Positions 20,334-64,000 of a stretch of DNA of 64,000 nt are shown one piece after another. The translations under genes and the position numbers were made by a program. Under the pieces are notes generated by a model, which was not told the origin of the DNA, searched no databases, and saw only the letters and a program-made list of their open reading frames with translations. Source of the DNA: Gammaproteobacteria bacterium (lineage in GTDB: Bacteria; Pseudomonadota; Gammaproteobacteria; Eutrophobiales; Eutrophobiaceae); NCBI GenBank assembly GCA_004297165.1, contig SCUJ01000011.1, positions 5,809 to 69,808 on the forward strand, read 5' to 3'. The first letter of the stretch is position 1. Each line of letters opens with the position of its first letter.

Positions 20334-22448
20334 TCAGATCTTCAAATCGTCGCTGAGGATCCGGGGCGTAACGAAGATCAGCAGTTCATTCCGCGTATTC
20401 CTGATGCGGCTGTTTTTGAAGAGAAATCCAACGTAGGGCAGGTCCCCGAAGAAGGGTACGCGATCAGAATCGTTTCTGTCGACCTGGGTATAGACACCGC
20501 CGAGCACGACGGTTTCCCCATCGTTGACCAAGACCTGTGTTGTGACGTTCTTGGTGTTGATGATCGGAATGCCTGACTGAGTCGAAGCGCCTTGGGAATC
20601 CTGATTCACGGTCAGGTCGAGGATAATCCGGTCGTCAGGGGTTATCTGTGGCGTGACCTTGAGCGAGAGCACCGCCTTCTGGAAGGAGGTAGATGTCGCT
20701 CCGCTCGAGGTTGCTTCTTGATAAGGAATCTGGACACCCGACTCGATAGTCGCAGTGGTCTTGTTAGCCGTAATGATCTTGGGGTTGGCGATATCCTCGC
20801 CTCGGCCTTCGGCCAGAAGCGCCGATAACTCGAGTTGCAGGAGGTATGAGCCTACCTTGCCCACCGCGAAACCTATGCCGCTGGTTCCAGCGACAGGGAG
20901 ATTGACCAGAAAATCGTCTGCGGTAGGCTCCAGATCGAATATGGCATCGCTACCCACAGTCGCCGTACCGTTATTAGTCATGGCATCGACGGAGCGCTTA
21001 CTGTAACCGAATTGCACGCCGAGATCCCTCGAGAAGGACTCGTCTGCATTGACGATACGCGATTCGATCATTACCTGCCGGACGGGTATATCTAGTTTGG
21101 CAATCATGTTCCGGATGGCCTCCAGGCTCGTGGCGACATCCTGGATAATCAGCGTATTCGTCCTGTCATCGATAGTGACATTACCCCGGCCGGACAACAA
21201 CTTACTTTCGCTACCCTGGATCAACGAGGCCAGATCGCTCGCCTTGGCATAGTTGATCTGGATGAAGTCGGTCCGTAGCGGCGATAATTCCGTGACCTGC
21301 TGTTGTGATTCCAGTTCCAGTTTTTCGCGCGCGGCGATTTCCTCTGTCGGAGCAACCAGCATGACATTCCCATCCTTGCGCACGGCCAATCCCTTGGCTT
21401 TCAGGATGATGTCCAGGACCTGATCCCAGGGTACATTCCGCAATCTCAAGGTAACGCTGCCGGACACGGTATCTGTAGCCACCAGATTGAATCCGGTAAA
21501 GTCCGCGATCAATTGCAGTACGGCGCGGACCTCAATATTCTGGAAATTGAGCGATAACCGTTCCCCTGTATAACCGAATTTTTCCTTTTCCTGCGCCTGT
21601 TTTTCTTCCTGTGTCAGGGGCCTGACTTCAATTGTAAAGAGGTTGCCGGACTGATAGGCCATATGATCATATTGATCTGTTACGGTCGAAATCAGCATCC
21701 GCGTTCCTCCGGCAACGCTGGAGGTATCGATCTCCTTCACCGGGGTCGCAAAATCGACAACATCAAGCCGTCGGTCAAGTTCTGCCGGCAAATTGGTTGA
21801 CATGAAATCCGCCACGATCTGGCCGGATTCCTGCCCCAGATTCACGCCCACAGATGGATCCGAAAGTGTGACGATAATTCGCCCTTCGCCGCCTTCGCCC
21901 CGGCGAAAATCGATTGCTTCGATCCTGCCGGCATCGCCGCCACTGGTTTCCCGCGCGCCAAGCGCAGGTTGCGCCGCGGCTGATGCGGCTGCGGGAGCCG
22001 CGCCCACGCCTGCCCCGAGAGTCATGAGTACCAGATTACCTTCGCTGGATATCTCATAAGAAACGGGGCGTACGAGGTTCACCACAACGCGTGTTCTTCC
22101 GCCGGCCTCGACCGCAGCTAGGCTGTGAGCCATGCCGATGCCTATACTTTGATTACGTTCCGCGAGATTCAACGATACACCAGGCAGATCCACGGCAATC
22201 CTGGCCGGATTGTCGATGGTGAAATTAACGGGTTCGGACGACAGCGCCTCCGAAAATTTCAGGCTGATTTGAACCTTGTCTCCTGGCATCGAGGAATAAC
22301 TGATATCGTCCAGGGTCACTGCTGCGTTCAGATTCGCACACGCCATCATACTGAAAGCAATCAGCGATAGTAGCCGACTATAGTTCATTACCGTTCTCCC
22401 GACGAATTGCTTGAACATTTCGGATCTCGTTAAAGTCATTTTACCCAC
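20334..22448 (-). CDS. pilQ: Type IVa pilus secretin PilQ
   Basis: Two AMIN domains, YTGERLSLNFQNIEVRAVLQ, VPWDQ, and a secretin C-terminus (GETVVLGGVY..ELLIFVTPRI). Start uncertain. Confidence 0.96.
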   Translation of the reverse strand: MGKMTLTRSEMFKQFVGRTVMNYSRLLSLIAFSMMACANLNAAVTLDDISYSSMPGDKVQISLKFSEALSSEPVNFTIDNPARIAVDLPGVSLNLAERNQSIGIGMAHSLAAVEAGGRTRVVVNLVRPVSYEISSEGNLVLMTLGAGVGAAPAAASAAAQPALGARETSGGDAGRIEAIDFRRGEGGEGRIIVTLSDPSVGVNLGQESGQIVADFMSTNLPAELDRRLDVVDFATPVKEIDTSSVAGGTRMLISTVTDQYDHMAYQSGNLFTIEVRPLTQEEKQAQEKEKFGYTGERLSLNFQNIEVRAVLQLIADFTGFNLVATDTVSGSVTLRLRNVPWDQVLDIILKAKGLAVRKDGNVMLVAPTEEIAAREKLELESQQQVTELSPLRTDFIQINYAKASDLASLIQGSESKLLSGRGNVTIDDRTNTLIIQDVATSLEAIRNMIAKLDIPVRQVMIESRIVNADESFSRDLGVQFGYSKRSVDAMTNNGTATVGSDAIFDLEPTADDFLVNLPVAGTSGIGFAVGKVGSYLLQLELSALLAEGRGEDIANPKIITANKTTATIESGVQIPYQEATSSGATSTSFQKAVLSLKVTPQITPDDRIILDLTVNQDSQGASTQSGIPIINTKNVTTQVLVNDGETVVLGGVYTQVDRNDSDRVPFFGDLPYVGFLFKNSRIRNTRNELLIFVTPRILSDDLKI

Positions 22449-22459
22449 CCCGTAGTGTT

Positions 22460-23038
22460 TTACTCTTCACCAGCCAGCGCAATGGCCGCCTCGCGTTCTT
22501 CCCAGCGTCCCTGACTATTTCTGACAATTTCACGCAGCTCTATCCTGTCCTCGAAAATGTTGACAATCTTGCCCACATTTCTGCCCATATAATTGCCGAC
22601 CTTTACCGGCGAGACATTGCCATCGGGATCCCTGACGATCCCCCATGTCACACCCTCGTTCTCCATGATGCCAACCATCTTGAGGCTGTCGAGTTCGTAT
22701 TTTTCCAGTTCCTCACGATTGCGATCTCGCAACTGCTTTTCCATCTCTTCGCTCAGACCAGCGTTCTCATCCACTTCCACCTCAGTCACCCGCACCTGAT
22801 AGAAAGACTCGAAAGGATCCGTCTTGCCTTCCTTGCCGGACATATAGGCATAGGCTTCGTAGGGTTTAATCTCGGGGAGTGGTTCGATGCGCCCGCCTGG
22901 CCGAGCCAGGACTTCGTCACGCCAACCATTCAGATCGGGATCCGAGGTAATATCCCTGCTGACACAGCCACCAGTCAGCAACACCACGGGCAACACTAAC
23001 CCCACTGATATCAACCTTGTGTTCGGTAGAATATACAT
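22460..23038 (-). CDS. pilP: Type IV pilus lipoprotein PilP
   Basis: Lipobox-like LTGGC, IEPLPE, DPF, REELEKYELDSLKMVG, VGNYMGRN. Confidence 0.93.
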   Translation of the reverse strand: MYILPNTRLISVGLVLPVVLLTGGCVSRDITSDPDLNGWRDEVLARPGGRIEPLPEIKPYEAYAYMSGKEGKTDPFESFYQVRVTEVEVDENAGLSEEMEKQLRDRNREELEKYELDSLKMVGIMENEGVTWGIVRDPDGNVSPVKVGNYMGRNVGKIVNIFEDRIELREIVRNSQGRWEEREAAIALAGEE

Positions 23039-23040
23039 GG

Positions 23041-23643
23041 CTAACCCTCTTCTTCTTCGAGGGCGCGATACGTCTTGGCGACCGCGGTCATGCTCAACAC
23101 ATTACCCCCCGTATTCGCATTTGCCAGAGCAATTTTGATATCGTGTGTGGTCACGATTCTGGGCAGGGCTGCGACGCCGCTGATGAATTCCCCCAGTTGA
23201 TGATAGGTCCCGCGCACCTGTATGTTAATAGGCGTTTCCGAATAAAACTCGCTCTGTTTTTCCGGTTGCGGCTGGAACAGATCGAATTCCAACCCGGCCG
23301 CGAGACCGGTCTGCGAGACATCCACAATAAGGCCCGCGATCTCGGTCTTGTTGGGCAATTGCCGGATCATGTCGCCAAAGGATTGCTCCATTTCCTTCAT
23401 CTGCTCCTTTAGCGCATCGAGATTCGCGGCCTTGCGTTGCTTGGTCTCGAAAGTGGTTTTCAATTCCTGCTCCTTGGTCTCCTCGCCGGCCAGGGTTTCG
23501 CGTTGCTTGCTGACATCGAAATGCCACCCGGCATAGAGAATCGCGGCAAAAACAATAACCGCCACCACTAGTTGATATAGAATCGGCCACAAGCCGGGAT
23601 TGTTCGGATCCAGATTCTTGATCTCGTTCAAGATGTTCTTCAT
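23041..23643 (-). CDS. pilO: Type IV pilus alignment protein PilO
   Basis: N-terminal WP + TM, coiled coil, QLPNKTE, FYSETPI, GTYHQLGEF..LPRIVT. Confidence 0.95.
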   Translation of the reverse strand: MKNILNEIKNLDPNNPGLWPILYQLVVAVIVFAAILYAGWHFDVSKQRETLAGEETKEQELKTTFETKQRKAANLDALKEQMKEMEQSFGDMIRQLPNKTEIAGLIVDVSQTGLAAGLEFDLFQPQPEKQSEFYSETPINIQVRGTYHQLGEFISGVAALPRIVTTHDIKIALANANTGGNVLSMTAVAKTYRALEEEEG

Positions 23644-24209
23644 GCGCCGTCCCCTTCCTCTTCAGCACTTGGTATCACCTGCTGGAAACGCAGGGTAAAA
23701 CCGCTAATCCGTGTACCATTGGCGTCTCGCGCCTGAATGATGTCTACGGCCGGATTGGCCAGCCATTCCGAAGCCTCCAGATTTCGCAGGAACGACGACA
23801 CCCTCGCATTGGACTGGGCTTCGCCGGTGATTGTGATATTGTTAGCCTGCTGAGTGACGGAGGTAACACTGACGCCTTCCGGTAAGCTGTCGACAAGTTC
23901 ATCGAAGAATCTCACGATCAAGGGCCGGTTGCCCTGCAACTGTTCAATCGCGCGCATACGGTCCAACAGACGCTGCTTCTCCATCTCCAGCTGCTCAATC
24001 TCTTTGATTTTGGCGTCCAACTTGGCCGTTTCATCGACGATAAACTGGTTTCGTCCCTGTTGACCCTCGATTAATTGACCATGGAACCAGTGAATCATGA
24101 ACCAGACGACCACGCCGACAACCGCCGCGACGCCCAGCAGTTGTACAAATTCCTTCTGTTTTTCCTTCCGTTTCGCTTCCCGCCAGGGAAGTAGATTAAT
24201 CTTGGCCAT
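23640..24209 (-). CDS. pilN: Type IV pilus alignment protein PilN
   Basis: N-terminal INLLPWRE motif, TM, AQSNARVSSFLRNL. Confidence 0.95.
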   Translation of the reverse strand: MAKINLLPWREAKRKEKQKEFVQLLGVAAVVGVVVWFMIHWFHGQLIEGQQGRNQFIVDETAKLDAKIKEIEQLEMEKQRLLDRMRAIEQLQGNRPLIVRFFDELVDSLPEGVSVTSVTQQANNITITGEAQSNARVSSFLRNLEASEWLANPAVDIIQARDANGTRISGFTLRFQQVIPSAEEEGDGA

Positions 24210-25270
24210 CAGTCGAAACTCCTCAATGCCAATCCACAGGAAACCATCAGCGCCGGCGCGTCATTGGCCAAGGACTGTGCCGAGACTCTAGATGACACCG
24301 ACATATCGGCGAATGGATTGGCCACTATTGTCGGTATGCCGATCTTTGCCTCCACCAACTCGGCGATCCCGCTTATCGAGGCGCACCCTCCAGCCAGAAT
24401 CAGATGATCGATGTTCGAAATCTGACTTGCGGAATAGAAAAACTGTTGGGCGCGACTGATTTGCTGGCTGATTGAATCCTTGAACGGCTCCAACACTTCG
24501 GGGATGTAGTTGTCCGGAAGGCCGCCCTGGCGTTTGGCGAGACCTGCCTCCTCATAGGACAGACCGTAGCGGCGCTGGATGTCCTCGGTGAGCTGCGCCC
24601 CGCCGAATTGTTGTTCCCGGGAATAGATAATCTTCATCTTATCCAGCACGCTGAAGGTGGTCACCGTCGAACCGATGTCCGCCACGGCGATAATCTCGTC
24701 GCTCGGATCAGTAAACTTGCTGTTGGCGATCATCGCCACTGTATTTTCCAGCGCGAACTGCTCGACATCGACAATCTTGGCGTTCAACCCGCCCAGCTGC
24801 ACGGCGCCAACCCTCAGATCGACATTGTCGCTACGTGACGCGGCGAGCAAGACGTCGATACGATCCGGGTTATCCGCGTTCGGGCCCTGCACATCAAAGT
24901 CCAGCGCGACTTCATTAAGCGGAAAGGGAATATATTGATCCGCTTCCACCTGGATCTGACTCTCGAGTTCGGCATCGGTCAGGTTGGCGGGCATGGTGAT
25001 AATCTTGGTTATCACGGATGATCCGGCGACAGCGACCGCAGCGTCCTTGGTCTTGGTGCCTGACTTTTTTACCGCCCGCGCGATTGCCTCGCCTACCGCA
25101 TCCATATCAGTTATATTCTTGTCGACGACGGAATTCGGCGGCAGAGGCTCAACAGAGTAGCTTTCAACACGATAACTACCGCCACTCCGGCTAAGTTCAA
25201 GCAACTTAATTGCTGTTGCGCTGATATCAATCCCGATAATCGGAGTTGATTTTTTCTTACGCAGTTGCAC
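24209..25270 (-). CDS. pilM: Type IV pilus actin-like protein PilM
   Basis: GIDISATAIKLLEL, EADQYIPF, ADIG, FGGAQLT, LAGG, CGLALRSFD. Confidence 0.96.
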   Translation of the reverse strand: MQLRKKKSTPIIGIDISATAIKLLELSRSGGSYRVESYSVEPLPPNSVVDKNITDMDAVGEAIARAVKKSGTKTKDAAVAVAGSSVITKIITMPANLTDAELESQIQVEADQYIPFPLNEVALDFDVQGPNADNPDRIDVLLAASRSDNVDLRVGAVQLGGLNAKIVDVEQFALENTVAMIANSKFTDPSDEIIAVADIGSTVTTFSVLDKMKIIYSREQQFGGAQLTEDIQRRYGLSYEEAGLAKRQGGLPDNYIPEVLEPFKDSISQQISRAQQFFYSASQISNIDHLILAGGCASISGIAELVEAKIGIPTIVANPFADMSVSSRVSAQSLANDAPALMVSCGLALRSFD

Positions 25271-53616: not shown

Positions 53617-55110
53617 ATGGAAGTCCCCGGCTATAAAATCCAGCGCGAGATCGGCAGAGGCGGGATGGCGACGGTCTACCTCGCCATCCAGGAATCCTTG
53701 GGACGGCCGGTCGTCCTCAAGATGCTGAATTCGGGGAATCTTGGCAAATCCGAAGAACTCGTGGATCGATTTCTCGCGGAGGGCCGCATCCTCGCCTCGC
53801 TCAATCACCCAAACATCATCACGATCTACGATATCGGCCTGGCCGGCGGCAGCATGTACATCTCCATGGAATATGTGCATGGCGGCGATCTCAAGCAGCG
53901 GCTGGAGTTGTCCATCTCCCCGGCGGAGGCGCTGGATTATCTGGCGCAGGTGACAAGGGCGCTCGGCGAGGCCCATAAGCATGGCATCGTGCACAGGGAC
54001 GTCAAACCGGCGAACATCCTCTTCAAGGACAACACCCCGATCCTGACCGACTTCGGCATAGCCAAGTACGTGGATACCGACAGCGACCTCACATCCACCG
54101 GCGTGTTTCTGGGCAGCCCGAATTATGTGAGCCCGGAACAGGCGAGCGGGACCAAGCTGGACGGACGGGCCGACATCTACAGCCTCGGCTGCATCTTTTT
54201 TGAAATGCTGGCCGGTAAAAAGCCTTATACCTCCGATTCCGTCATCGACATCATTATCAAGCATCGCCAGGCCCCCATCCCCAAACTGCCGAAGGAACTG
54301 GCCGAATATCAGCCGCTGCTCAACCGCATGATGGCGAAAAAACGGGATGAGCGCTTCCCGGACGCGGAAAGCCTGTTGACCGAGATTGAGAAACTCCGGA
54401 AGCAGCATCTTAAAAACGCCACCGGAGAGATTGAGATCACCGGCGAGCAGGCACACCAGTTGTTACTGACCCAGGAAAGGCGCAAGCGGCGTATCCTGAT
54501 CGGACTGATCCTGATCTCGCTCGTGGTGTTCTCGACGCTCAAGTACGTGGAGATCAGGATCAAGACCCCCAGCGTGGTGAACACGCGCAATATCTCTACA
54601 GAGACTATCCTCGATAATTCGACCGGAACGGTCGTCACCGCGATGACGCAGTCTTCGCCAACCCCTAACAGCGCAGCCCCCGCGCCAGTCGTGACGCAGG
54701 CCCCCCTGATCGCGGACCCTGCCACGGAACCCGTCACGACGCCCGCGCCCGCCCCACCGGTCAATGCGGAGATCGTAAAGGCCCTCAAATTCCTCGGCCA
54801 GCAGAGTCTGGATGCCTATAAGCTGACTTATCCGCCAGGCGACAATGCCTATTATTATTTCTCCCGTTTGCTGGAGATTGAGCCCGGCAATCCGGAGGCG
54901 GTGAACGGGATCCTGCAAATTGCCGATCGTTACGCCTTTCTCGCCGAACAGGCGGTGCTGAACAACGAGAACGAAAAGGCCTCCGCTTACGCGGACATTG
55001 GACTGCGGATCAATCCCCGGAACGAGGCCCTGCTCGCGCTCAAGAACTTTTCGCAATCGCAGGACGGGTCGCTGTGGACGACGGTCAGGAAGTTGTTTTC
55101 GGGGAAGTGA
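53617..55110 (+). CDS. Hanks-type Ser/Thr protein kinase with TM, Pro/Ala linker and periplasmic TPR-like domain
   Basis: IGRGGMATVY, HRDVKPANIL, DFG, GSPNYVSPE, DIYSLG; TM near residue 295; LTYPPGDNAYYYF. Confidence 0.92.
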   Translation: MEVPGYKIQREIGRGGMATVYLAIQESLGRPVVLKMLNSGNLGKSEELVDRFLAEGRILASLNHPNIITIYDIGLAGGSMYISMEYVHGGDLKQRLELSISPAEALDYLAQVTRALGEAHKHGIVHRDVKPANILFKDNTPILTDFGIAKYVDTDSDLTSTGVFLGSPNYVSPEQASGTKLDGRADIYSLGCIFFEMLAGKKPYTSDSVIDIIIKHRQAPIPKLPKELAEYQPLLNRMMAKKRDERFPDAESLLTEIEKLRKQHLKNATGEIEITGEQAHQLLLTQERRKRRILIGLILISLVVFSTLKYVEIRIKTPSVVNTRNISTETILDNSTGTVVTAMTQSSPTPNSAAPAPVVTQAPLIADPATEPVTTPAPAPPVNAEIVKALKFLGQQSLDAYKLTYPPGDNAYYYFSRLLEIEPGNPEAVNGILQIADRYAFLAEQAVLNNENEKASAYADIGLRINPRNEALLALKNFSQSQDGSLWTTVRKLFSGK

Positions 55111-55122
55111 CCCTCTAACAAA

Positions 55123-55686
55123 CTATTTGTTAATCTGCTGACCGCCGACAGTTTCTTTTGCCTGCTGGGTCTGCTGCTGCTCCCAGGCCGAGATCAGGGC
55201 CCGCATATCCTCGACAGACATCTCCTCCGCCGCAGCCGGGACCTCCGGCGATAACGGCGCTGCGGGTTCCGCGGTTTCGGGTTCCGCCTCCGCTGCTGCT
55301 GCCTCGGCGATCCCGGCCTCCGTTTCGGCAACGGCCTGTTGTTGATGCTCCATGGCCGCCTTGAGCCGTTTCGCCTGCAAAAGTTTTTCCCTGGCCGCGT
55401 CGCGTTGCGCCTCGGCGTCGATCAGGGCCTCCTGCCGCAGCCGATCGCGCTCCGTTTCGGAGAGCTTGATGCCGGTGTCATCCACGACCCGGTCCTTATC
55501 GAAGACGAATACCCTGGGTCCTGCCTCCGCGCTTCTATACCAGACCGGCGGTTTGCCGGACAGTTGTGTGGTCCCGGTGTCGGGGTCCACCCACTGGTAC
55601 ATGCGTTCGGCGGACGCCGACGTCGCTCCGAGCGCCGACAGTACGATAACGAGGTATCTGATCAGATGCATCGATGCAGTAACCAT
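55123..55686 (-). CDS. DUF4124-like exported protein
   Basis: Signal peptide, then MYQWVDPDTGTTQLSGKPP, then a coiled coil. Confidence 0.7.
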   Translation of the reverse strand: MVTASMHLIRYLVIVLSALGATSASAERMYQWVDPDTGTTQLSGKPPVWYRSAEAGPRVFVFDKDRVVDDTGIKLSETERDRLRQEALIDAEAQRDAAREKLLQAKRLKAAMEHQQQAVAETEAGIAEAAAAEAEPETAEPAAPLSPEVPAAAEEMSVEDMRALISAWEQQQTQQAKETVGGQQINK

Positions 55687-55719
55687 GAAGGGATGTGAAG
55701 GAAGTATAGCAATACTTTA

Positions 55720-56481
55720 TTACGCCTCGATACACCGCAGATAGGCCTGCTCGAAATCGGCGCTGCCGAAGTTGCCGCAACATTCCTGCGGCGTGCCCAC
55801 AAAACGGATCCGCCCCTCGTGCAGGATGGCGACCCGATCGCAAAGCTGCTCCACATCGCTCAACTGATGGGTGCTGAACAGCAGGGTGCGGCCCGCCGCG
55901 TGCGCATCCATGAGATGCCGCTTCAACAGGGCGCGGGCCTTGGGGTCCAGTCCGCTCATGGGTTCGTCGAGGATCAAGAGTTCGCGCCCGCTCAAGAGGC
56001 AGGCGGCTAGCCCGAGTTTCTGCGACATCCCCTTGGAGAACTGCCGCACGGGTTTGCGCAGGGATTCCGGATCGAGATCCAGCGCGCTAAGGATCGTCGT
56101 CAAGCGCTCCTCCTCCAGGGGCTGCCGATAGAGGCTTGCCATGTAGGCGAGAAAGTCGCGGCCGGTCAGGTAATAGGGTGGCGTGAAACGCTCAGGCAGG
56201 TATGCCAGACGCTCCCGCGCCTCTATCCGCCCGCTGTCATGCCCGTAGATCTTAATCGTACCGCCGCTCGCGGTAGTGAAATCCAGGAGGCATTTGAGCA
56301 GGGTGGTCTTGCCGGCCCCGTTGCTGCCCACCAGGCCGAGTGATTCTCCTGCATGCACCGTGAGACTCACCTTGGCGATCACCTCCTGCCGCCCGTAGGT
56401 CTTGCTTACATCGCTGAAGACGACGGCGGGGTCAACGGAAAAAAAAGGCCCGCGAACGGGCCTTTCGGGTACTGCTAGCAC
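55720..56481 (-). CDS. ABC transporter ATP-binding protein (PilH/XapD-like)
   Basis: GSNGAGKTT, YLPE, FSKGMSQK signature, LILDEPMSGLDP, STH. Confidence 0.92.
   Translation of the reverse strand: MLAVPERPVRGPFFSVDPAVVFSDVSKTYGRQEVIAKVSLTVHAGESLGLVGSNGAGKTTLLKCLLDFTTASGGTIKIYGHDSGRIEARERLAYLPERFTPPYYLTGRDFLAYMASLYRQPLEEERLTTILSALDLDPESLRKPVRQFSKGMSQKLGLAACLLSGRELLILDEPMSGLDPKARALLKRHLMDAHAAGRTLLFSTHQLSDVEQLCDRVAILHEGRIRFVGTPQECCGNFGSADFEQAYLRCIEA
56439..56465 (-). terminator. Intrinsic terminator downstream of the pilin gene
   Basis: Minus strand reads AAAGGCCCG-TTCG-CGGGCCTTTTTTTT (GC stem, UUCG loop, U8), about 25 nt after the pilin stop. Confidence 0.85.
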
Positions 56482-56489
56482 TGCAATGC

Positions 56490-57296
56490 CTAGTACAGAT
56501 AAACCGCGTTACAACGGGTGTTGTCGCTGTCGACGTTGTAAGTCGCCGTGGCGGTGTCCGGATTAGTCACACAGGCGGGACCGAAGGTGCTGTTCCAGAG
56601 CAGGACCTCCCGTCCGGCTGTACCGCCAGCGCCGAAGTTCGTTCCGCCGACCGCCGTTTCGCCGTTCTTGACCGCGCTGACGGTGGATCGCACCACGCCC
56701 GTGCCCGGAGCGCCGTCATCCAACTTGACATCGAGTTCCCGCAGGAGGGATGCCGTAACGCCTGCGCCGTAGGCGTAGGCGAGCCGCACCGTGGAGGTCG
56801 AGCCGCCCCCGTCATAATCATCGGTATAACCGAGGAAGATTGGTTGCTGGAAGGCGTTGCCAGGTACATTACCGCTCAATACGCCGCCCTCGTAGGCCGC
56901 AACGTTCCCAGTCACTCCAGGGTAGGTTCCGTTGATGAATCCCGCAGCGGATAGATGGGCCCAAATCGCGCCCGCCTCTACCCAGGAATCGATTCGACCA
57001 TTCTGATTACCGCCCACAGTCGCTGCACCAAACGGAGAGGCGCCACAAGCGGTGATGGTCGAGGTGATCGCCGAGCAGGCCAGGGCCGGAGGCATATCGC
57101 CGGGGATTTGGCGATAACGGTCGATGAAGCCGAAGTAAGCCGCCTGGATGCCGGTATTCTGATCCGCCATGTTGCGCACCCGGGCGCTGCTGATCAGTTG
57201 CTGGCCCTTCAGGATGCCGCCGAGCAGCAGTCCGATGATGACGAGCACGATGGCGATTTCCACCAGGGTGAATCCGCGTTGTCTTGATTTGTACAT
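56490..57296 (-). CDS. Type IV prepilin-like protein, 268 aa, probable major pilin
   Basis: MYKSRQRG|FTLVEIAIVLVIIGLLLGGILKGQQLI class III signal peptide; C-terminal Cys pair; has its own promoter and terminator. Confidence 0.9.
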   Translation of the reverse strand: MYKSRQRGFTLVEIAIVLVIIGLLLGGILKGQQLISSARVRNMADQNTGIQAAYFGFIDRYRQIPGDMPPALACSAITSTITACGASPFGAATVGGNQNGRIDSWVEAGAIWAHLSAAGFINGTYPGVTGNVAAYEGGVLSGNVPGNAFQQPIFLGYTDDYDGGGSTSTVRLAYAYGAGVTASLLRELDVKLDDGAPGTGVVRSTVSAVKNGETAVGGTNFGAGGTAGREVLLWNSTFGPACVTNPDTATATYNVDSDNTRCNAVYLY

Positions 57297-57341
57297 ATCA
57301 TTTCTCGCTTTGTGTGGTTTGGTGTTGCGTGCCGGATTAAA

Positions 57342-57357
57342 TGCACTATTCATGCCA
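57342..57357 (-). promoter_or_regulatory. sigma54 (-24/-12) promoter of the pilin gene
   Basis: Minus strand TGGCATGAATAGTGCA has exact GG-N10-GC spacing, 45 nt upstream of the ATG at 57296. Confidence 0.75.
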
Positions 57358-57378
57358 TTTCTATAACTTTATGATTAA

Positions 57379-57510
57379 GGAAGCTCTGAACAAGTGCCAA
57401 TTCCCATTGGTCGTCATTCCGGCGAAGGCCGGAATCCAGTCAAAAACAACTGCTTACTGGATGCCGGGTCAAGCCCGGCAAGACGGGATAGACACTTTTG
57501 CTAAGGTTCC
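57379..57510. mobile_element. MITE-like repeat, copy 2 (132 bp)
   Basis: TTAA|GGAAGCTCTGAACAAGTG...CACTTTTGCTAAGGTTCC|TTAA: imperfect terminal inverted repeats with a TTAA duplication and the same hairpin core as copy 1. Confidence 0.82.
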
Positions 57511-57703
57511 TTAATTGGGTTTTATATAGACATCACCAGTAATTACCCCCATGACCTCTGTTGAAATCCCGGCAAAACTGTCGATTTTTCATCATGTAAA
57601 CAATCAATTGCTGACATGGATTCCGGGTTCATCTCGTAATTACATAATTTTTTACCCGGAATTTTATGCAGGGTACACTACGCCATTTCCGCCAGCCTTT
57701 GCC

Positions 57704-58984
57704 ATGACAGCAGACACAACAATAACGACCAGGATGACCCGGCTGCTCACGATTGCCGACAGGGACACGCTCCACAGGCGCTTCATCCCCTCCGCCATCC
57801 TGCTGTTCATCCTGCTGATCTTCACCGCCAATGCCCTGGGGATCAGCTATCTCAGTTCGAGCGCCGCCCTAGGCATCTCGTTCAACTTCACCCCGTTGCA
57901 GCTCTCGCCCATCGTCGGCTCGCTGGAATTCAACGTCATGATGACCGCCGGGTTGTTGTTGTCATTGCTCTTGCCCTGGCTCAGCCCGATTCAGGGGTCG
58001 TTGCTCACGCTGTGCTGCGCGATCGTACCGGTCTATGTGAATTACACCCATCCCGGCCGGCAGACGCTGTTGCCGATGGAATATGTCCTGCTGACCATGC
58101 TCGTCATATTCGCCATCGACATCCTCATCGCCTGGTTCGATGAAACGCGGCAGAAACAGCGGATCGTGCAATTGTTCGGCCAATACATCCCGCCGCAACT
58201 GGCGCAGACCCTCACCCGGCGGCCGGACCTTGTGGATCTCGAGGGCGAGTCGAAGATCATGACGGTCCTGTTCAGCGACCTCCAGAACTTCACCGGTATG
58301 TCAGAGCAACTGAATACCAAACAATTGGTGAAGTTGCTGAACGACTATCTGACGGCAATGTCCGGGGTCCTTTACGAATACCAGTCGACCATCGACAAAT
58401 ATATCGGCGACGCCATCATGAGTTTCTGGGGCGCCCCGCTGCCCCAACCCGATCACGCTGCGCTGGCGGTGCGCGCCGCATTGAAGATGCAGGAGGCGAT
58501 GGCGGCATTCTCGGCCGAATACTGCAAACGCGGCTGGCCGCAGATGAAAATGGGGATCGGGATCAACACCGGCCGGATGAGCGTCGGCAATATGGGATCG
58601 AAATACCGGCTGGCGTATACGGTGATGGGCGATGCGGTCAATCTCGCCTCCCGCCTGGAGGGATTGACCAGGGTTTACCGGGTGCCCGTGATCGTGGGCG
58701 AGGCGACCATGAAGGAGGCCGGCGGCATTGTTTACCGGGAACTGGATACAGTGCAGGTGCGCGGCAAACACAAGGCCTGCCGCATCTTTCAGCCGCTTTG
58801 CGCGGAAGCGGATCAGAGCGGGGATCTCAAGGAGCGCCTGGAGCTTCATCAACGCGCGATCGACGCCTGGTACAAAGGCGATCTTCTCGAAGCCCAGGCG
58901 ATTTTCGGGAGATTGGCCAAACTCGATCCCGACGATGGTTATTATCCGGTCATGCTGGGCCGCATCGCCGAGAAAATGAATTGA
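57704..58984 (+). CDS. Membrane-anchored class III adenylate cyclase
   Basis: Several TMs, FGQYIPP, TVLFSDLQNFT, DKYIGDAIM, GIGINTG, YTVMGDAVNLASRLE. The Lys/Thr pair suggests ATP specificity. Start uncertain (57551, 57704 or later). Confidence 0.9.
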   Translation: MTADTTITTRMTRLLTIADRDTLHRRFIPSAILLFILLIFTANALGISYLSSSAALGISFNFTPLQLSPIVGSLEFNVMMTAGLLLSLLLPWLSPIQGSLLTLCCAIVPVYVNYTHPGRQTLLPMEYVLLTMLVIFAIDILIAWFDETRQKQRIVQLFGQYIPPQLAQTLTRRPDLVDLEGESKIMTVLFSDLQNFTGMSEQLNTKQLVKLLNDYLTAMSGVLYEYQSTIDKYIGDAIMSFWGAPLPQPDHAALAVRAALKMQEAMAAFSAEYCKRGWPQMKMGIGINTGRMSVGNMGSKYRLAYTVMGDAVNLASRLEGLTRVYRVPVIVGEATMKEAGGIVYRELDTVQVRGKHKACRIFQPLCAEADQSGDLKERLELHQRAIDAWYKGDLLEAQAIFGRLAKLDPDDGYYPVMLGRIAEKMN

Positions 58985-59018
58985 AAAACTGTCGCTCGCG
59001 ACTTTTTTCGGCAGATTA

Positions 59019-59744
59019 TTACGGTGCTTCTTCTAATTTGAGAAGCCGATCTTGCAGGAAACGGATCTCGGCCGGGTCATCAATCGCTTCGTGTTCCAGC
59101 AGACCGCCGATGAGGACCTTCGCCGCCTCGATCTCCCCCGTGTCCTCCAGCACATACACCTCCATATCCCTGGCCCAGAAGGGCACGGCCGGCGACCTGG
59201 CGTTCTGCCGCAGCGTGCGTGCATAATCGAGCGCGAGTTCAAGGTCCTTGATTTGATACTTCGCGACAAAAATGCAATGCGCGAGCCAACGCCAGCGCCG
59301 GTCCGGAGCGAGGAGAAATTTTTCCCGCACAAATTCCAGCATGCGCCTTTTCTTTGCGTCGTCGGGGACCTGCGAATACAGGCGGCTTGCGGCCAGCAGT
59401 GGATAATCGGCGCGATCGTCCAGCGCCAGAATCCTGTCGAGCCATTCGATCAATCGCGTGTAATCCAGTTGTTTGAAAGGAATGCTGATACCAGGCTGAT
59501 TGTCGAAAGCTTGCAGCCAGAGCATCAGCACCTTCGCGAGGGCGATTGGATCATCGAGGCCCGCGAGCCGCAGTTGCGGGCCTTGCGGCGGGGCAGGCAG
59601 ATCCTCAGCCTGCGCCTCGGCAGAGGGGCGCAAGAAACCCCAGGTTATTTGCAGCAGGACGGCCAGCGCGAAGGCCCACATGCACTTTACCGGGGTGGCG
59701 CGCCACGGCCGCTCGTCGCGCCAATATTTGAAATGCCGATTCAA
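59019..59744 (-). CDS. Membrane-anchored helical/TPR-like protein (PilG/XapA-like)
   Basis: TM, then LMLWLQAFD, LDY..L..WL..IL.LD....YPL.AA.RLY, P..RWRWL; directly after the ABC permease. Confidence 0.6.
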   Translation of the reverse strand: MNRHFKYWRDERPWRATPVKCMWAFALAVLLQITWGFLRPSAEAQAEDLPAPPQGPQLRLAGLDDPIALAKVLMLWLQAFDNQPGISIPFKQLDYTRLIEWLDRILALDDRADYPLLAASRLYSQVPDDAKKRRMLEFVREKFLLAPDRRWRWLAHCIFVAKYQIKDLELALDYARTLRQNARSPAVPFWARDMEVYVLEDTGEIEAAKVLIGGLLEHEAIDDPAEIRFLQDRLLKLEEAP

Positions 59745-59769
59745 TGACCGATGACCAGTGACAAATGAC

Positions 59770-60540
59770 TTACAGGTTTTTTCTGTACAGATCGATCAGC
59801 GCCGCGGCGGCCAGCAACACCATATAGATCAGCGTCTGCCCCAATACCGGCAACAAATCGGCGATCCCGGACCCGCCATAAACCAGCCATTCAGTCCGGG
59901 AAAACCCATCCAGGTCCGGCAGCAACACGGCGAGACAGCGGATCAGGAGGCCGATAAACGCCTGGGCCGCCGAGCCTGTCTCGAGGATCGGGCTTTGACT
60001 GATGAGGACGATCGCGGTCATGGTCCGTGACAGCAGATAAAAGGCCATGACCGCCGTAAAGGCGATGGTGACATTGCCGAAGGTAAACAAACAAAGCAGC
60101 GCCGCCGCGGTCATCAACAGGAGTTCACAAAACAACGACAGCGTCCAGATCGTGAGTTGATCGGGTTGCGTGTATATAACCAGCGGCAGGCTGACCAGCA
60201 CTGCGACCGCCGCGGCCAGCAGGGCAAAACCCAGCAGTTTGCCAAAATAATACGAGCTTCTGCGCAGCGGCAGGGACAACACGAGTTCGAAACCCTTGTC
60301 GTTGAACTCCCGCACCATGCTGGTGATCACGAAAAGACTTGTAAGAAAGACCGCTGTCAGCCTGAGCATGGCGCCGGCTATCGCCGCCTGAATCCGGATG
60401 CTTTCGGTGATGGCGAGTTCCCCGATGAATCCCGCGAGCCCGAAGAGGCCGAGGACCAACAGGATCGCAAACAGGAACAGGTGATTGTTCACCGCCTCCT
60501 TGAAGGTGTAACGCGCGATGGTCCGGATGGAATCATTCAT
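59770..60540 (-). CDS. ABC transporter permease (PilI-like)
   Basis: IARYTFKEA, 6 TMs, RE...K....VLSLPL.R..Y..GK..G, LLPDL..F. Confidence 0.85.
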   Translation of the reverse strand: MNDSIRTIARYTFKEAVNNHLFLFAILLVLGLFGLAGFIGELAITESIRIQAAIAGAMLRLTAVFLTSLFVITSMVREFNDKGFELVLSLPLRRSSYYFGKLLGFALLAAAVAVLVSLPLVIYTQPDQLTIWTLSLFCELLLMTAAALLCLFTFGNVTIAFTAVMAFYLLSRTMTAIVLISQSPILETGSAAQAFIGLLIRCLAVLLPDLDGFSRTEWLVYGGSGIADLLPVLGQTLIYMVLLAAAALIDLYRKNL

Positions 60541-60629
60541 GCTACTGTATGTCCTGTGCGCAGAAGAGGGAATATTCGCATCCCGGAACGCCGTTTGGCA
60601 AATCCGAATCTCGCAACAATAACAGCATC

Positions 60630-62315
60630 ATGCCGAATACACTGCAATTACTGAAACGGCGCCAGGAGCCGTTGAACCTGGTGTTGATGCTGGAATTCCT
60701 GCATTTTTCCATCTGGCTCGATTTTGGCAGCCCGCTGTCCCGTTCCTGCATGTTGATTCATCTCGGGCTCTTCCTCATCTGGCAGCCGGTCTGGAAACAT
60801 GACGAACAGATCTCCTGGTTCAACAGCCTGGTATTCATTTTATTGACGCTCACCTTCGTGACGTTCATGAACTGGACCCTGCTGTTCGGCTGGCTCATCC
60901 TGCTCAGCGGTTTTGCCGGCGGGCGGATCATCGTCAACCGGAACGAACGCGCCACCTATATGAACGTGCTGACGTTCCTGATAACGGAGCTCATCATTCA
61001 ATGCACTCCTGGCCTCTTTGCCATCGAGATCCAGGCCAATGTGAGCGGGCTCTTCGAGATCCTGCTGCCGCTCTTGCCGCTGTTGATCATATTCCTGCCG
61101 GTGCGCAAGCCGGACACCCGCATCCAGTCCGTCGATCTCCAGCATGCTCTCGCCACTTCGACGATGATTACCCTGTTGATCTTCGGCAGTTTGCTGAACA
61201 TGTACATCGGCAAGACCGATTACATGCTGGCCCTGATCCAGGCCCTGCTGGCCATCGCCGCTTTTCTGTTCGCCATCAGTTGGCTGGTTTCTCCCAGGGT
61301 CGGATTCAGCGCCCTCTCGCAACTCTGGTCGCGCGCGCTGCTCAATATCGGCACGCCATTCGAACGCTGGCTGGAAGAACTGGCCCGGATCTCCCAGCAA
61401 CAGCAGACGCCGGAGGCCTTTCTCGAGATGGCCATGGAAGAGCTGGTAAGCCTGCCCTGGGTCAACGGGGTAGGCTGGAGCGCCGGCAAGCACAGTGGCG
61501 CGAATGGAACGCTGGCGAAACACATGATCGAGTTCCGCACCGGGAATCTGGAGATCGACATCTATACCTACAATCCCGTTGGCGCCGCGCTTTATCATCA
61601 CTGCAATCTGCTGGTCCAGGTCATCGAACATTTTTACATGGCCAAGATCCGCGAACGCAAACTCACCCATCAGGCCCACTTGCAGGCGATCCACGAAACC
61701 GGCGCGCGGGTGACGCATGACATCAAGAATCTGCTCCAGTCGCTGCAGGCGATCACGACCGTCCTTGGCGAGGAAAGCGAGGGGCTGCAAAACCCGCGGA
61801 CCAGAAAACTTGTGCGTGAACAGATGCCGCACCTTGGTCGGCGCCTGCAACTGGCCCTGGATAAATTAATCAAACCCGCCGAGAAACCCGAGGAATTCGG
61901 CGATCTCACCGCATGGTGGGAGAATCTGCGCCGACTGCACACGGAAGCGGGAGTGGCGTTTCATGCGGCCATCGATGCCAGTGCCGAGATCCCCGTGGAG
62001 TTGTTCGACAGCGTCACGGAAAATCTGCTCGAAAACATCCGTGACAAGACGCATGCTGAAGGCCCGCTCCGGATACAAATCGATCTGAACGCGAACGACG
62101 CTGGCGTGCGTCTCGAAATCCGCGATAACGGCAGGGCCATCGCACCGGAAAAGGCGGAGCTGATCCTGCGCGAACCCACGGATTCCGAAAGCGGCCTCGG
62201 CATCGGGCTTTACCAGGCGGCCCGGTTGGCGGAATCCTTGGGATACGTGCTGGAACTCGACAGCAACCGGGATGGGGCGGTGAGTTTTGTCCTGCGCAAC
62301 TCCTTGTTTGATTAA
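60630..62315 (+). CDS. Multi-TM sensor histidine kinase
   Basis: About 7-8 TMs, H-box THDIKNLLQSL, N-box ENLLEN, DNG, SGLGIGLYQ. Confidence 0.88.
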   Translation: MPNTLQLLKRRQEPLNLVLMLEFLHFSIWLDFGSPLSRSCMLIHLGLFLIWQPVWKHDEQISWFNSLVFILLTLTFVTFMNWTLLFGWLILLSGFAGGRIIVNRNERATYMNVLTFLITELIIQCTPGLFAIEIQANVSGLFEILLPLLPLLIIFLPVRKPDTRIQSVDLQHALATSTMITLLIFGSLLNMYIGKTDYMLALIQALLAIAAFLFAISWLVSPRVGFSALSQLWSRALLNIGTPFERWLEELARISQQQQTPEAFLEMAMEELVSLPWVNGVGWSAGKHSGANGTLAKHMIEFRTGNLEIDIYTYNPVGAALYHHCNLLVQVIEHFYMAKIRERKLTHQAHLQAIHETGARVTHDIKNLLQSLQAITTVLGEESEGLQNPRTRKLVREQMPHLGRRLQLALDKLIKPAEKPEEFGDLTAWWENLRRLHTEAGVAFHAAIDASAEIPVELFDSVTENLLENIRDKTHAEGPLRIQIDLNANDAGVRLEIRDNGRAIAPEKAELILREPTDSESGLGIGLYQAARLAESLGYVLELDSNRDGAVSFVLRNSLFD

Positions 62316-63118
62316 GGCAGGCGTTCAGCCGTGACCATCCGGTACATCAACATCGAAGGCGGTATCCAGATAAGAATATCGTCATACTCTGAACCGGCCG
62401 CCTGCACGTAGGTATCCGAGGTGAATTTCTTGTCCCCGGCAGTGGTCCACCAATTCCGCAATTCGGCCGTTGAGCCTGGCGCCGTTCCCCCAAAGTTCTG
62501 GCCGTTCTTGCCGAGTGAGTAAACGAGAGCTGGCACCTCCGTTGCGACGTTATTATTGCTCACATCGACAACGGTGATATCCCCTTTTGCGCAAATTTCA
62601 AATGAAATACCCAATGTCGCCGACACACTGCAATCGACGGTATCAGTTGTTCCATCATCATCGTCCGCAAATTCTTGATCCACGCTGTAGATGATTCGAT
62701 GATCCCATGCATCATCGCCAGGGACGCCGAGGGTGGCGAAAGGAAGATAACCAACCTCAACGGCACAGGTGGCAACAGTAAGAGGGTCGTTACGGTTAGC
62801 ATAACTATGGCTGACATCGTCGACGACGACGTCCTCATGTCCGTCGGCGATATCCGCCGGGTCATTCGTGTCGATCGCCCCACAATAACCAACACTCCCA
62901 TCCGGGCAATCCGGACAGGGGAGATGTCCGTTCACCAGTGTATAACCGACGAGGCTCTCCTTAATCTGGTTGAGCAACTCCTTAGTCTCTTCTCTGTCAG
63001 CCTGTTCCAGTCTGGACGACAGGGGAGACATCAAGCCCCCCAGGACAAGGGCCAGGATGAACAGGACCATCGCCAGTTCGATCAGGGTGAAGCCTTTGTG
63101 TATCGCAGGTATACGCAT
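62312..63118 (-). CDS. Prepilin-like (minor pilin/pseudopilin) protein
   Basis: KG|FTLIELAMVLFILALVLGG, LVGYTLVNGHLPCPD, GYLPFATLG...DAW, YDDILIW. Confidence 0.88.
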   Translation of the reverse strand: MRIPAIHKGFTLIELAMVLFILALVLGGLMSPLSSRLEQADREETKELLNQIKESLVGYTLVNGHLPCPDCPDGSVGYCGAIDTNDPADIADGHEDVVVDDVSHSYANRNDPLTVATCAVEVGYLPFATLGVPGDDAWDHRIIYSVDQEFADDDDGTTDTVDCSVSATLGISFEICAKGDITVVDVSNNNVATEVPALVYSLGKNGQNFGGTAPGSTAELRNWWTTAGDKKFTSDTYVQAAGSEYDDILIWIPPSMLMYRMVTAERLP

Positions 63119-63122
63119 AAAC

Positions 63123-64000
63123 CTATTGCAAAACCCTTACTTGATCGTTGGATGTGATCTCGCCTTTGATAAATTCATCATCGCCTGGATCATCGGAATT
63201 TTCTAACTCGAAATAATCTTCATAAGCGGCGCTAGGCCGGTTCCCCAACAGATCAATACCAGCGCTGATTACCAGAGCATGCTTGTTGTTCGTTGGTGTA
63301 GCTGCGCCAACAAGGGTGATGCATGCAGGAATACCTGCCGGAATACAAGGGCCGGCATTGTCCGGCGCGTCGCCAGCGGAGTAAGCGATCAATATGAGTT
63401 TGTGCCAATTGTTTTCGGTTAACCACGAGGGAATTTCATCTCCCACACCCAGATCGAAGGCAGTTTCGTAGACATCCATATCGCCATCCGTCGCCGTCGT
63501 GATGACGTTGGTGGCGGATCCTCCCTTAACAACCACCAACGGGTAACAGATGCCTGACACGGTAAGACATGCCTCAGCGGGCACAGTGCCATCATCAAGA
63601 AACACGATAGGGTTCAATGGAAGACACCACCACCAAAATGGCAGACAACTATTTATTGTGCCCGAATCCGTGATAGTAACTTCCCCCTTGGTCCCGGATG
63701 GAAATCCATCTGTCGGATCCGCTGCGAGATTCACATCTCTGTTGCGCAACGTTCCAGGGCAAGCGGTATATACACAAATGGATGGCGTCCCGCCAGATGG
63801 AATGGAGATATCGAAATCATAATGGCGCGTGCCTGTAACTGAAGTGATGGGGATACCGAGTACTATGATCCGCAACGTGACCGGATCCGGGTCTTGTGCC
63901 CGTCCTGCGCAACGGATGGCATCACGCGCGATCCACTTGCATTCCGGCCCCACAATCGACGCATCCAGATCATACAACACGGAATCCATGTCAACGGCTA
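63123..64000 (-). CDS. Hypothetical Cys-rich pilus-associated protein, N-terminus beyond the window
   Basis: Frame is open to the window edge. C-terminal IPSWLTENNWHKLILIAYS..C...C...ALVISAG..L...RPS....DYFE..N..D....F......NDQV; stop lies 4 nt before the prepilin-like gene. Confidence 0.65.
   Translation of the reverse strand, partial: AVDMDSVLYDLDASIVGPECKWIARDAIRCAGRAQDPDPVTLRIIVLGIPITSVTGTRHYDFDISIPSGGTPSICVYTACPGTLRNRDVNLAADPTDGFPSGTKGEVTITDSGTINSCLPFWWWCLPLNPIVFLDDGTVPAEACLTVSGICYPLVVVKGGSATNVITTATDGDMDVYETAFDLGVGDEIPSWLTENNWHKLILIAYSAGDAPDNAGPCIPAGIPACITLVGAATPTNNKHALVISAGIDLLGNRPSAAYEDYFELENSDDPGDDEFIKGEITSNDQVRVLQ

Follow-up and report, generated by a model that had tools for sequence, protein, structure and literature searches.

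A predicted MSHA-like type IV filament locus with a dedicated three-part ABC-2 module in uncultured Gammaproteobacteria

Type IV filament genes occupy one end of a 64,000-nucleotide stretch of a gammaproteobacterial genome (GenBank assembly GCA_004297165.1, contig SCUJ01000011.1), hereafter the window (G000:C5:5809-69808 in our numbering). We studied the span from 55123 to 64000, which an earlier note, made from the letters alone, had described as a second type IV filament system with its own ATP-binding cassette (ABC) exporter. An open reading frame (ORF) listing together with Pfam and NCBIfam scans recovered all seven minus-strand genes that the note had listed, which are, in the direction of transcription, a Cys-rich protein, a second prepilin (pilinB), an ABC-2 family permease, a membrane-anchored helical protein (H241), a prepilin (pilinA), an ABC ATPase, and an exported DUF4124-like protein. 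Two plus-strand genes that the note had missed, encoding a cyclase (57551-58984) and a histidine kinase (60549-62315), interrupt this series; therefore, the span comprises at least three minus-strand transcription units and is not one operon. The ATPase and DUF4124-like genes follow pilinA without room for a promoter, and the permease and H241 genes lie in a separate upstream unit. The locus is predicted to encode a conserved, unannotated filament of the mannose-sensitive hemagglutinin (MSHA) kind, under PilS/PilR-style sigma-54 control and equipped with an ABC-2 machine of its own in three parts, the motor gene of which would be carried on the pilin transcript. As the note had held, this locus is separate from the canonical pilMNOPQ genes, which were confirmed at 20334-25270.

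PilinA occupies the minus-strand frame 56490-57353 (N_methyl, E 3.6e-8), and its real start is M20 at 57296. From there, the precursor has 268 residues, with an eight-residue leader (MYKSRQRG) ahead of the G|FTLVE junction and two Cys pairs. Over its first 60 residues, the mature protein hardly varies among 11 genera, and it is presumed to be the major pilin. The sigma-54 promoter and the terminator that had been claimed for it both bore out. The promoter is a -24/-12 element, TGGCATGAATAGTGCA, on the minus strand at 57342-57357, upstream of pilinA. The strict consensus TGGCAC-N5-TTGC with at most one mismatch gave two matches in the window against 4.71 expected and none upstream of a pilin. 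With a relaxed pattern, 28 of 64 distinct related loci have a match upstream of pilinA, in most cases at a distance of 75-125 nt from the G(-1) codon and once at 206 nt; the background is 57 matches genome-wide, or 0.0018 per 220 nt. The spacer between pilinA and the cyclase (57296-57551) also holds two perfect palindromes, GCCGGGCTTGACCCGGC and TTCCGGCCTTCGCCGGAA; these were considered as activator sites and rejected, since the genome has 11 and 4 copies of them, respectively, which makes them repetitive extragenic palindrome (REP)-like elements.

Downstream of pilinA, an intrinsic-terminator-like hairpin (minus strand, 56443-56466) has a 10-pair stem with 6 GC pairs, followed by the T run TTTTTTTT. 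It overlaps the first codons of the frame of the ABC ATPase (minus strand, 55720-56481; 253 residues; PF00005, E 1e-25). The pilinA stop lies at 56490, and the sole canonical in-frame ATPase start before the conserved core is the GTG at 56481, which is 8 nt past that stop and ahead of the hairpin. Since no room is left for a promoter of their own, the ATPase and DUF4124-like genes can, by prediction, be expressed only by read-through from the pilin promoter, and the hairpin is read here as a putative leaky attenuator. Orthologues of the ATPase keep Walker A, the signature SKGM(A/S)QK, Walker B, and the H-loop; the best NCBIfam models are exporters of the DrrA, GldA, and NodI types, all far under their cut-offs. 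The unit ends with the DUF4124-like gene (minus strand, 55123-55686; 187 residues), whose product has a signal peptide and, in the orthologue alignment, a conserved RMYQWVDPDTGT..SGKPP.WYR core and an acidic tail. Its earlier assignment as DUF4124-like stands in part: five of nine orthologues match DUF4124 (best E 8.7e-5), and the window copy has no match.

The ABC ATPase is the cognate motor of the permease (minus strand, 59770-60540), a protein of 256 residues with six to seven hydrophobic segments. Membership of the permease in the ABC-2 transporter clan comes through its orthologues, of which 13/13 match ABC2_membrane_3 (best E 4.9e-10) and 10/13 match ABC2_membrane_2; the window copy itself is sub-threshold, at 27.3 bits against a gathering cut-off of 31.6. 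H241 (minus strand, 59019-59744) is a bitopic protein of 241 residues, in which an N-terminal hydrophobic helix carrying an invariant Gln precedes a tetratricopeptide repeat (TPR)-like helical-repeat domain. This domain is presumed to be periplasmic, and H241 is presumed to be the accessory partner of the permease. The AlphaFold2 model is all-helical (predicted local distance difference test score [pLDDT] 85.2). H241 matches no Pfam or NCBIfam family, and fold searches returned generic TPR matches alone, with a best Foldseek E of 5.9e-3 and Z scores of 10.8 for VIA (the best), 9.9 for YfgM, and 9.1 for PilF, all below the bar of about 13 for helical repeats. The H241 family numbers at least 4,058 protein clusters; the 120 listed are all without a Pfam domain, and those with names are all called hypothetical. 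As a lead, the nearest non-self atlas clusters of both H241 and the permease come from Bdellovibrionota and Elusimicrobiota. A second sigma-54-like motif, TGGCTCGCGCATTGCA, lies within the H241 coding region (minus strand, 59273-59288) and may well be a chance match.

The upstream end of the span holds the remaining filament components. PilinB (minus strand, 62312-63118; 268 residues; N_methyl, E 2.8e-5) has a GspG-like N-terminus with 34 bits to TIGR01710, under the cut-off, and a conserved LPCPD motif. It is present in 41 of the 50 related loci with at least 9 kb of upstream sequence and is presumed to be a minor pilin. The Cys-rich protein of the earlier note is real, but the frame at 63123-64000 covers only the C-terminal 292 codons of a larger gene, which extends to 64922 in window-equivalent coordinates (L001:8932-10731). 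The full product, P599, has 599 residues, 12 Cys, and a transmembrane helix at residues 12-30; its N-terminal helix is pilin-like, lacks E5, and in our reading may be of the GspK style. Pfam, NCBIfam, and PDB sequence searches found no match for P599.

Past position 64000, the minus strand continues with the rest of the machine (coordinates again window-equivalent), and the complete gene set of an MSHA-kind system, about 22 kb, is contiguous in the source genome. After P599 come P188 (64923-65489), a PilP-like exported protein with a signal peptide and a small beta domain; P221 (65432-66097), which is bitopic with one transmembrane helix; P535 (66048-67655), which is PilM/GspL-like; and a platform protein ending at 69192 (T2SSF, E 8.5e-49; best NCBIfam model GspF, 291 bits against a cut-off of 424). 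The assembly ATPase (68844-70556; T2SSE PF00437, E 1e-127) carries a cyclic di-GMP (c-di-GMP)-binding MshEN domain (PF05157, E 1.6e-18; 66.9 bits, cut-off 23.1) and matches NF053729, a motif for c-di-GMP (50.7 bits, cut-off 38), which identify it as MshE-type. It is followed by a TPR protein (70553-72250; L001:16362-18059) and a secretin (72247-73893; Secretin, E 2.1e-37) that is assigned to the MshL type by TIGR02519, barely passing at 250.4 bits against a cut-off of 250.2. An ExeA/MshM-like AAA_22 ATPase (73969-75348), whose best model, TIGR03015 for a PEP-CTERM-associated ATPase, stays sub-cut-off at 210 against 324.5 bits, and an NtrC/PrsR-like sigma-54 response regulator (75426-76868) complete the series, after which housekeeping genes begin. 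The assembly ATPase, platform, and secretin that had been expected beyond 64000 are thus all there.

P535, P221, P188, P599, and H241 match no Pfam or NCBIfam family. The AlphaFold model of P535 (pLDDT 74.3) shows two alpha/beta domains, one at each terminus, with a single long membrane helix between them, and its best PDB folds are PilM (5eoy, E 1.2e-8), EpsL (1yf5, 8e-8), GspL (4pht, 7e-7), and PilM-PilN (2ych). Given this modeled fold, the alignment subcomplex appears to be present in a very diverged form, in which P535 would fill an MshI/J/K-type role. Alignment by hhalign of P535 with the PilM and PilN of the window, and of P188 with PilP, gave no signal (probabilities 0.1-0.7%), and PDB sequence searches with P535, P188, pilinA, pilinB, and P599 found nothing past the pilin N-terminal helix. 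The locus has no prepilin peptidase. The genome has a single Peptidase_A24 gene (C2:336279), beside pilB and pilC on another contig, so the filament machine would have to borrow this one PilD for prepilin processing. In the same region, the best genome match to PilC, the type IVa pilus (T4aP) platform (G000:C2:334569-335798), was reported with one TAG inside the match. The genome also carries four PilB/GspE-type and three PilT-like ATPases; to call the filament a second system therefore understates what the genome holds. Four genes of the locus have a further likeness, to the XrtA/PEP-CTERM system, whose models rank first for the AAA ATPase (TIGR03015) and the response regulator (PrsR), both within L107:778-3677, and for the histidine kinase (PrsK), and second for the TPR protein (PrsT, behind a PA2778 peptidase model). 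These matches, all sub-cut-off, hint at shared regulatory ancestry.

Linkage of these genes across genomes was followed with H241 as the marker, which is present in 22 of 24 genera besides its own in this family. The permease adjoins it in 12/12 loci from other genera, and 10 of these 12 share the arrangement machinery, pilinB, (kinase), permease, H241, (cyclase), pilinA, ATPase. A pattern scan with one genome per species returned 326 stretches encoding an H241 relative, of which the best 80 were analyzed; these come mostly from uncultured Gammaproteobacteria and include Betaproteobacteria such as Sulfuricella. Among them, the gene immediately upstream of H241 is the permease in 71 of the 73 loci with enough sequence; pilinA and the ATPase are found downstream in 50 of 56, and genes of the machinery upstream in 40 of 50. 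The system is common in uncultured groundwater bacteria.

The association also holds at the level of whole genomes. In an even sample of the class (Gammaproteobacteria in the GTDB sense, Betaproteobacteria included; completeness of 90% or more), 42 of the 300 genomes scored, from 27 families, have H241, and 60 of 300 have P535. P535 is present in 41 of the 42 H241-positive genomes, the exception being an assembly of 1,400 contigs, and all 27 H241 families fall within the 40 P535 families, out of about 204 (counted from tables). The ABC ATPase orthogroup (cut-off E <= 1e-50) occurs in 40 of 301 genomes; all 40 of its carriers are H241-positive, it is found in 0/259 H241-negative genomes, and the co-occurrence persists where the ATPase gene is 30-80 kb off or on another contig. 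Because of this linkage and phylogenetic profile, the ABC ATPase, the ABC-2 permease, and H241 are one dedicated three-part unit tied to this machine. The trio is co-conserved with the pilins, even where the genes are unlinked, which is the opposite of what would have refuted the earlier note.

The machine and the ABC module can also be found apart. Four ABC-less loci that were inspected encode, in this order, the secretin, TPR protein, assembly ATPase, platform, P535, P221, P599, pilinB, and pilinA; no permease, H241, or ABC ATPase orthologue was found in them and no kinase within 20 kb. In the two pilinA genes read from such loci, the product has 195 to 211 residues and the same N-terminal helix. 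One ABC-less locus, in genome G160, carries a further secretin-like gene (L110:16570-17964; 29% identity with the MshL-type secretin), which lies downstream of its pilins by about 2 kb. Elsewhere, some genomes have the pilin/ABC module detached from the machinery. In G104, for example, a block of kinase, permease, H241, and pilinA (L108:11384-19359) lies 183 kb from the machinery and adjoins kdsD-kdsC-lptC-lptA-lptB-rpoN, hence beside the sigma-54 gene.

Three genes on the plus strand accompany the locus. The histidine kinase (588-residue frame; HATPase_c, E 1.5e-10), with a likely start at M28 (60630), is a multi-pass membrane protein of PilS-like architecture, with a weak PrsK-like C-terminal match in NCBIfam (52.7 bits, cut-off 300); Pfam and the transmembrane scan revealed no sensor domain. 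The membrane-bound class III adenylate/guanylate cyclase (477 residues; Guanylate_cyc, E 2.1e-23) is divergent from pilinA and is optional: 16 of 50 loci have it inserted between the H241 and pilinA genes. A Ser/Thr protein kinase with one transmembrane helix (53617-55110; 497 residues; Pkinase, E 1.3e-51) converges on the end of the locus and is a conserved neighbor in some related loci, the convergent pair with the DUF4124-like gene recurring in 8 of 12 loci from other genera and 13 of the 80 species loci. It may be no more than a neighbor of the pilus system.

A weak hint of expression comes from four metatranscriptome libraries, whose contigs match the window at 95-99% identity and partly cover six genes of the locus (the DUF4124-like gene, ABC ATPase, pilinA, cyclase, permease, and kinase); one of them runs from the ATPase through the hairpin into the 3' end of pilinA. 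They leave gaps, for example at 59165-59706 and 62417-63200; such a gap proves nothing. In the spacer between pilinA and the cyclase, 31-mers with loose ends in these libraries accumulate at 57411-57442. In the 3' part of pilinA (56546-56682), one contig, from a relative 95-99% identical, has 144 other letters replacing 135 nt, which suggests that the pilin head carries a strain-variable cassette at this position.

How might such a machine work? The kinase and the sigma-54 response regulator most likely act on the pilinA promoter in the manner of PilS and PilR. The ATPase would be made by read-through of the pilin terminator, which would tie ABC dosage to pilin dosage, and the trio may work on the pilin or on its assembly, at the inner membrane and in the periplasm, as reported for PilGHI on PilA in Myxococcus. 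There, the pilA promoter drives a single operon of pilA-pilG-pilH-pilI (PMC3546991), PilGHI is recorded as required for pilus assembly and PilA export (TCDB 3.A.1.144.5; PMC3924187), and pilGHI deletion is described as abolishing social (S) motility and exopolysaccharide (PMC5544727); the mode of action of these proteins is said to be without supporting experimental data (PMC6060248). On balance, we consider it probable that the span studied here forms one end, with pilin and accessory genes, of a complete MSHA-kind machine, with a dedicated ABC trio that acts on the pilin or its assembly, and we think such action likelier than export of an unrelated solute. A more specific version is offered tentatively: the trio could serve to handle pilin, not to export a solute, and would hold, release, or clear pilin between the inner membrane and the platform. 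The ABC-2 motor would spend ATP, via its anchored periplasmic TPR partner, on an unusually large pilin, and the neighboring PilS-like kinase may read ABC activity.

Other explanations can be weighed against the same evidence. The trio could leave the pilin untouched and export a surface glycan, lipid, or envelope component for anchoring or adhesion. Membership of the permease in the ABC-2 clan and the DrrA, GldA, and NodI-type exporter models of the ATPase, sub-cut-off as they all are, would suit this role, as would Geobacter, where GSU1501 (xapD), encoded close to pil genes, is designated a sugar ABC transporter (PMC5585712). However, no glycosyltransferase or polysaccharide-synthesis gene appeared in the locus maps, which covered homologues of window genes, or in a Pfam scan of nine ORFs flanking the detached module of G104; the ATPase is, by its position, transcriptionally tied to the pilin; and the trio is found solely in genomes carrying this machine. 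We regard such an exporter as unlikely, if still worth considering.

A different role would be sensory, with the ABC machine acting mainly as a co-sensor for the PilS-like kinase, reporting pilin load or envelope state and setting pilin transcription. Bce-type transporters signal to their kinases in this way. The kinase gene lies upstream of the permease and divergent from it in 32 of 50 loci, stays with the permease, H241, and pilinA in detached modules (L061, L068, L071, L073, L082, and L108), and is missing together with the trio from the ABC-less loci described above; its multi-pass membrane N-terminus, in which no sensor domain was detected, would also suit this role. On the other hand, 18 of 50 ABC-positive loci have no kinase upstream (L016 and L030 are examples), and we hold a mainly sensory role to be improbable. 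Finally, that the ABC genes are unrelated neighbors, such as a detoxification pump, kept by inherited synteny is disfavored and very hard to credit: the compared loci come mostly from related uncultured Gammaproteobacteria, so that shared order could be inherited, but the co-occurrence extends across 27 families even with the ATPase 30-80 kb off or on another contig, the ATPase orthogroup is absent from all 259 H241-negative genomes, and the ATPase start lies 8 nt past the pilin stop.

Our preferred reading, that the trio acts on the pilin or its assembly, has to be set against the following points: (i) ABC-2 transporters usually move glycans, lipids, or drugs. (ii) Fold and atlas searches gave just generic TPR and ABC-2 matches. 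(iii) H241 is missing from 19 of the 60 P535-positive genomes and, since a sister machine exists without it, the ABC module appears from these comparisons to be an add-on of one branch and not a core part of assembly. (iv) Related genomes, which are not independent, enter the co-occurrence counts, as do three that are unpublished (G295, G141, and G063); without these three, P535 is present in 39/39 and the ATPase in 38/39 H241-positive genomes. (v) The RNA-library contigs come from a relative, give no information on strand or on transcript ends, and could stem from DNA carry-over. (vi) The arrangement departs from that of PilGHI, with the order permease, accessory protein, (cyclase), pilin, ATPase in two units as against pilA-G-H-I, with the permease and H241 in an upstream unit outside the pilin promoter, unlike the PilGHI operon, and with H241 being purely helical.

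Among known systems, the machinery is closest in kind to the MSHA pilus of Vibrio cholerae, as far as the descriptions consulted go. It shares with it an MshE-type ATPase with MshEN, an MshL-type secretin, a platform, an ExeA-like AAA ATPase, a TPR protein, and a single locus without a prepilin peptidase. The MSH class is defined by mshA/E/G/L/M in a single locus with no peptidase, and the MshG platform and MshM AAA ATPase are mandatory in the TFFscan MSH model (PMC6668835); the T2SSF and AAA_22 domains found here could correspond to the MshG-like and MshM-like roles, and the genes form a single locus with no peptidase among them. However, the MshI/J/K proteins and the mshBACDOPQ pilin set were not found in canonical order. 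The order is instead regulator, AAA ATPase, secretin, TPR protein, assembly ATPase, platform, alignment proteins, and pilins; there are two prepilins and one giant GspK-like protein; and the ABC trio, the sigma-54 two-component pair, and the cyclase are extra. Given this different order and alignment proteins outside any Pfam or NCBIfam family, the locus does not classify cleanly as an MSHA or type II secretion system (T2SS); a clean classification would have refuted the earlier note. The xap genes of Geobacter sulfurreducens (GSU1501, xapD) resemble the locus in having an ABC ATPase gene close to pilin and pil genes; they differ, by description, in forming a sugar or polysaccharide exporter amid polysaccharide genes, none of which was noticed in the mapped loci. 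Rearranged MSH-like clusters of obscure role have also been mentioned, as "data not shown," in Sideroxydans ES-1 and Gallionella ES-2 (PMC3770913), freshwater members of the Betaproteobacteria, a group that also has H241; the paper lists no genes for these clusters and names no ABC module. Our literature search, which had subscription journals and bioRxiv supplements outside its reach, returned no paper describing this locus type or its ABC module.

The module itself is most like PilG-PilH-PilI of Myxococcus xanthus (MXAN_5782-5780), which, as described, likewise combines an ABC ATPase, a permease of about 250 residues, and an accessory factor encoded with the major pilin, a sigma-54/PilSR-type promoter, and a tie to a type IV filament. 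The locus studied here encodes just such a set, an ABC ATPase, a polytopic permease, and an accessory protein, together with its presumed major pilin; it differs in that the machine is MSHA-like and not a T4aP and in that an ABC-less sister form exists. We infer from architecture, wiring, and co-occurrence that the trio may work in a PilGHI-like manner. Type IV filaments rank with the most thoroughly studied machines of bacteria, yet PilGHI, known since 1998, is the single ABC transporter for which a pilus requirement is known, and it still lacks a mechanism. The present locus would thus be a second and very widespread setting for the same question, one that annotation pipelines miss because several core parts (P535, P221, P188, P599, and H241) are absent from Pfam and NCBIfam. 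It offers natural controls in the sister machines without the module, clear regulatory wiring, and cultured carriers such as Sulfuricella. If the trio does prove to handle pilin, this would explain PilGHI-type modules as well, and type IV filaments would have a new class of accessory system.

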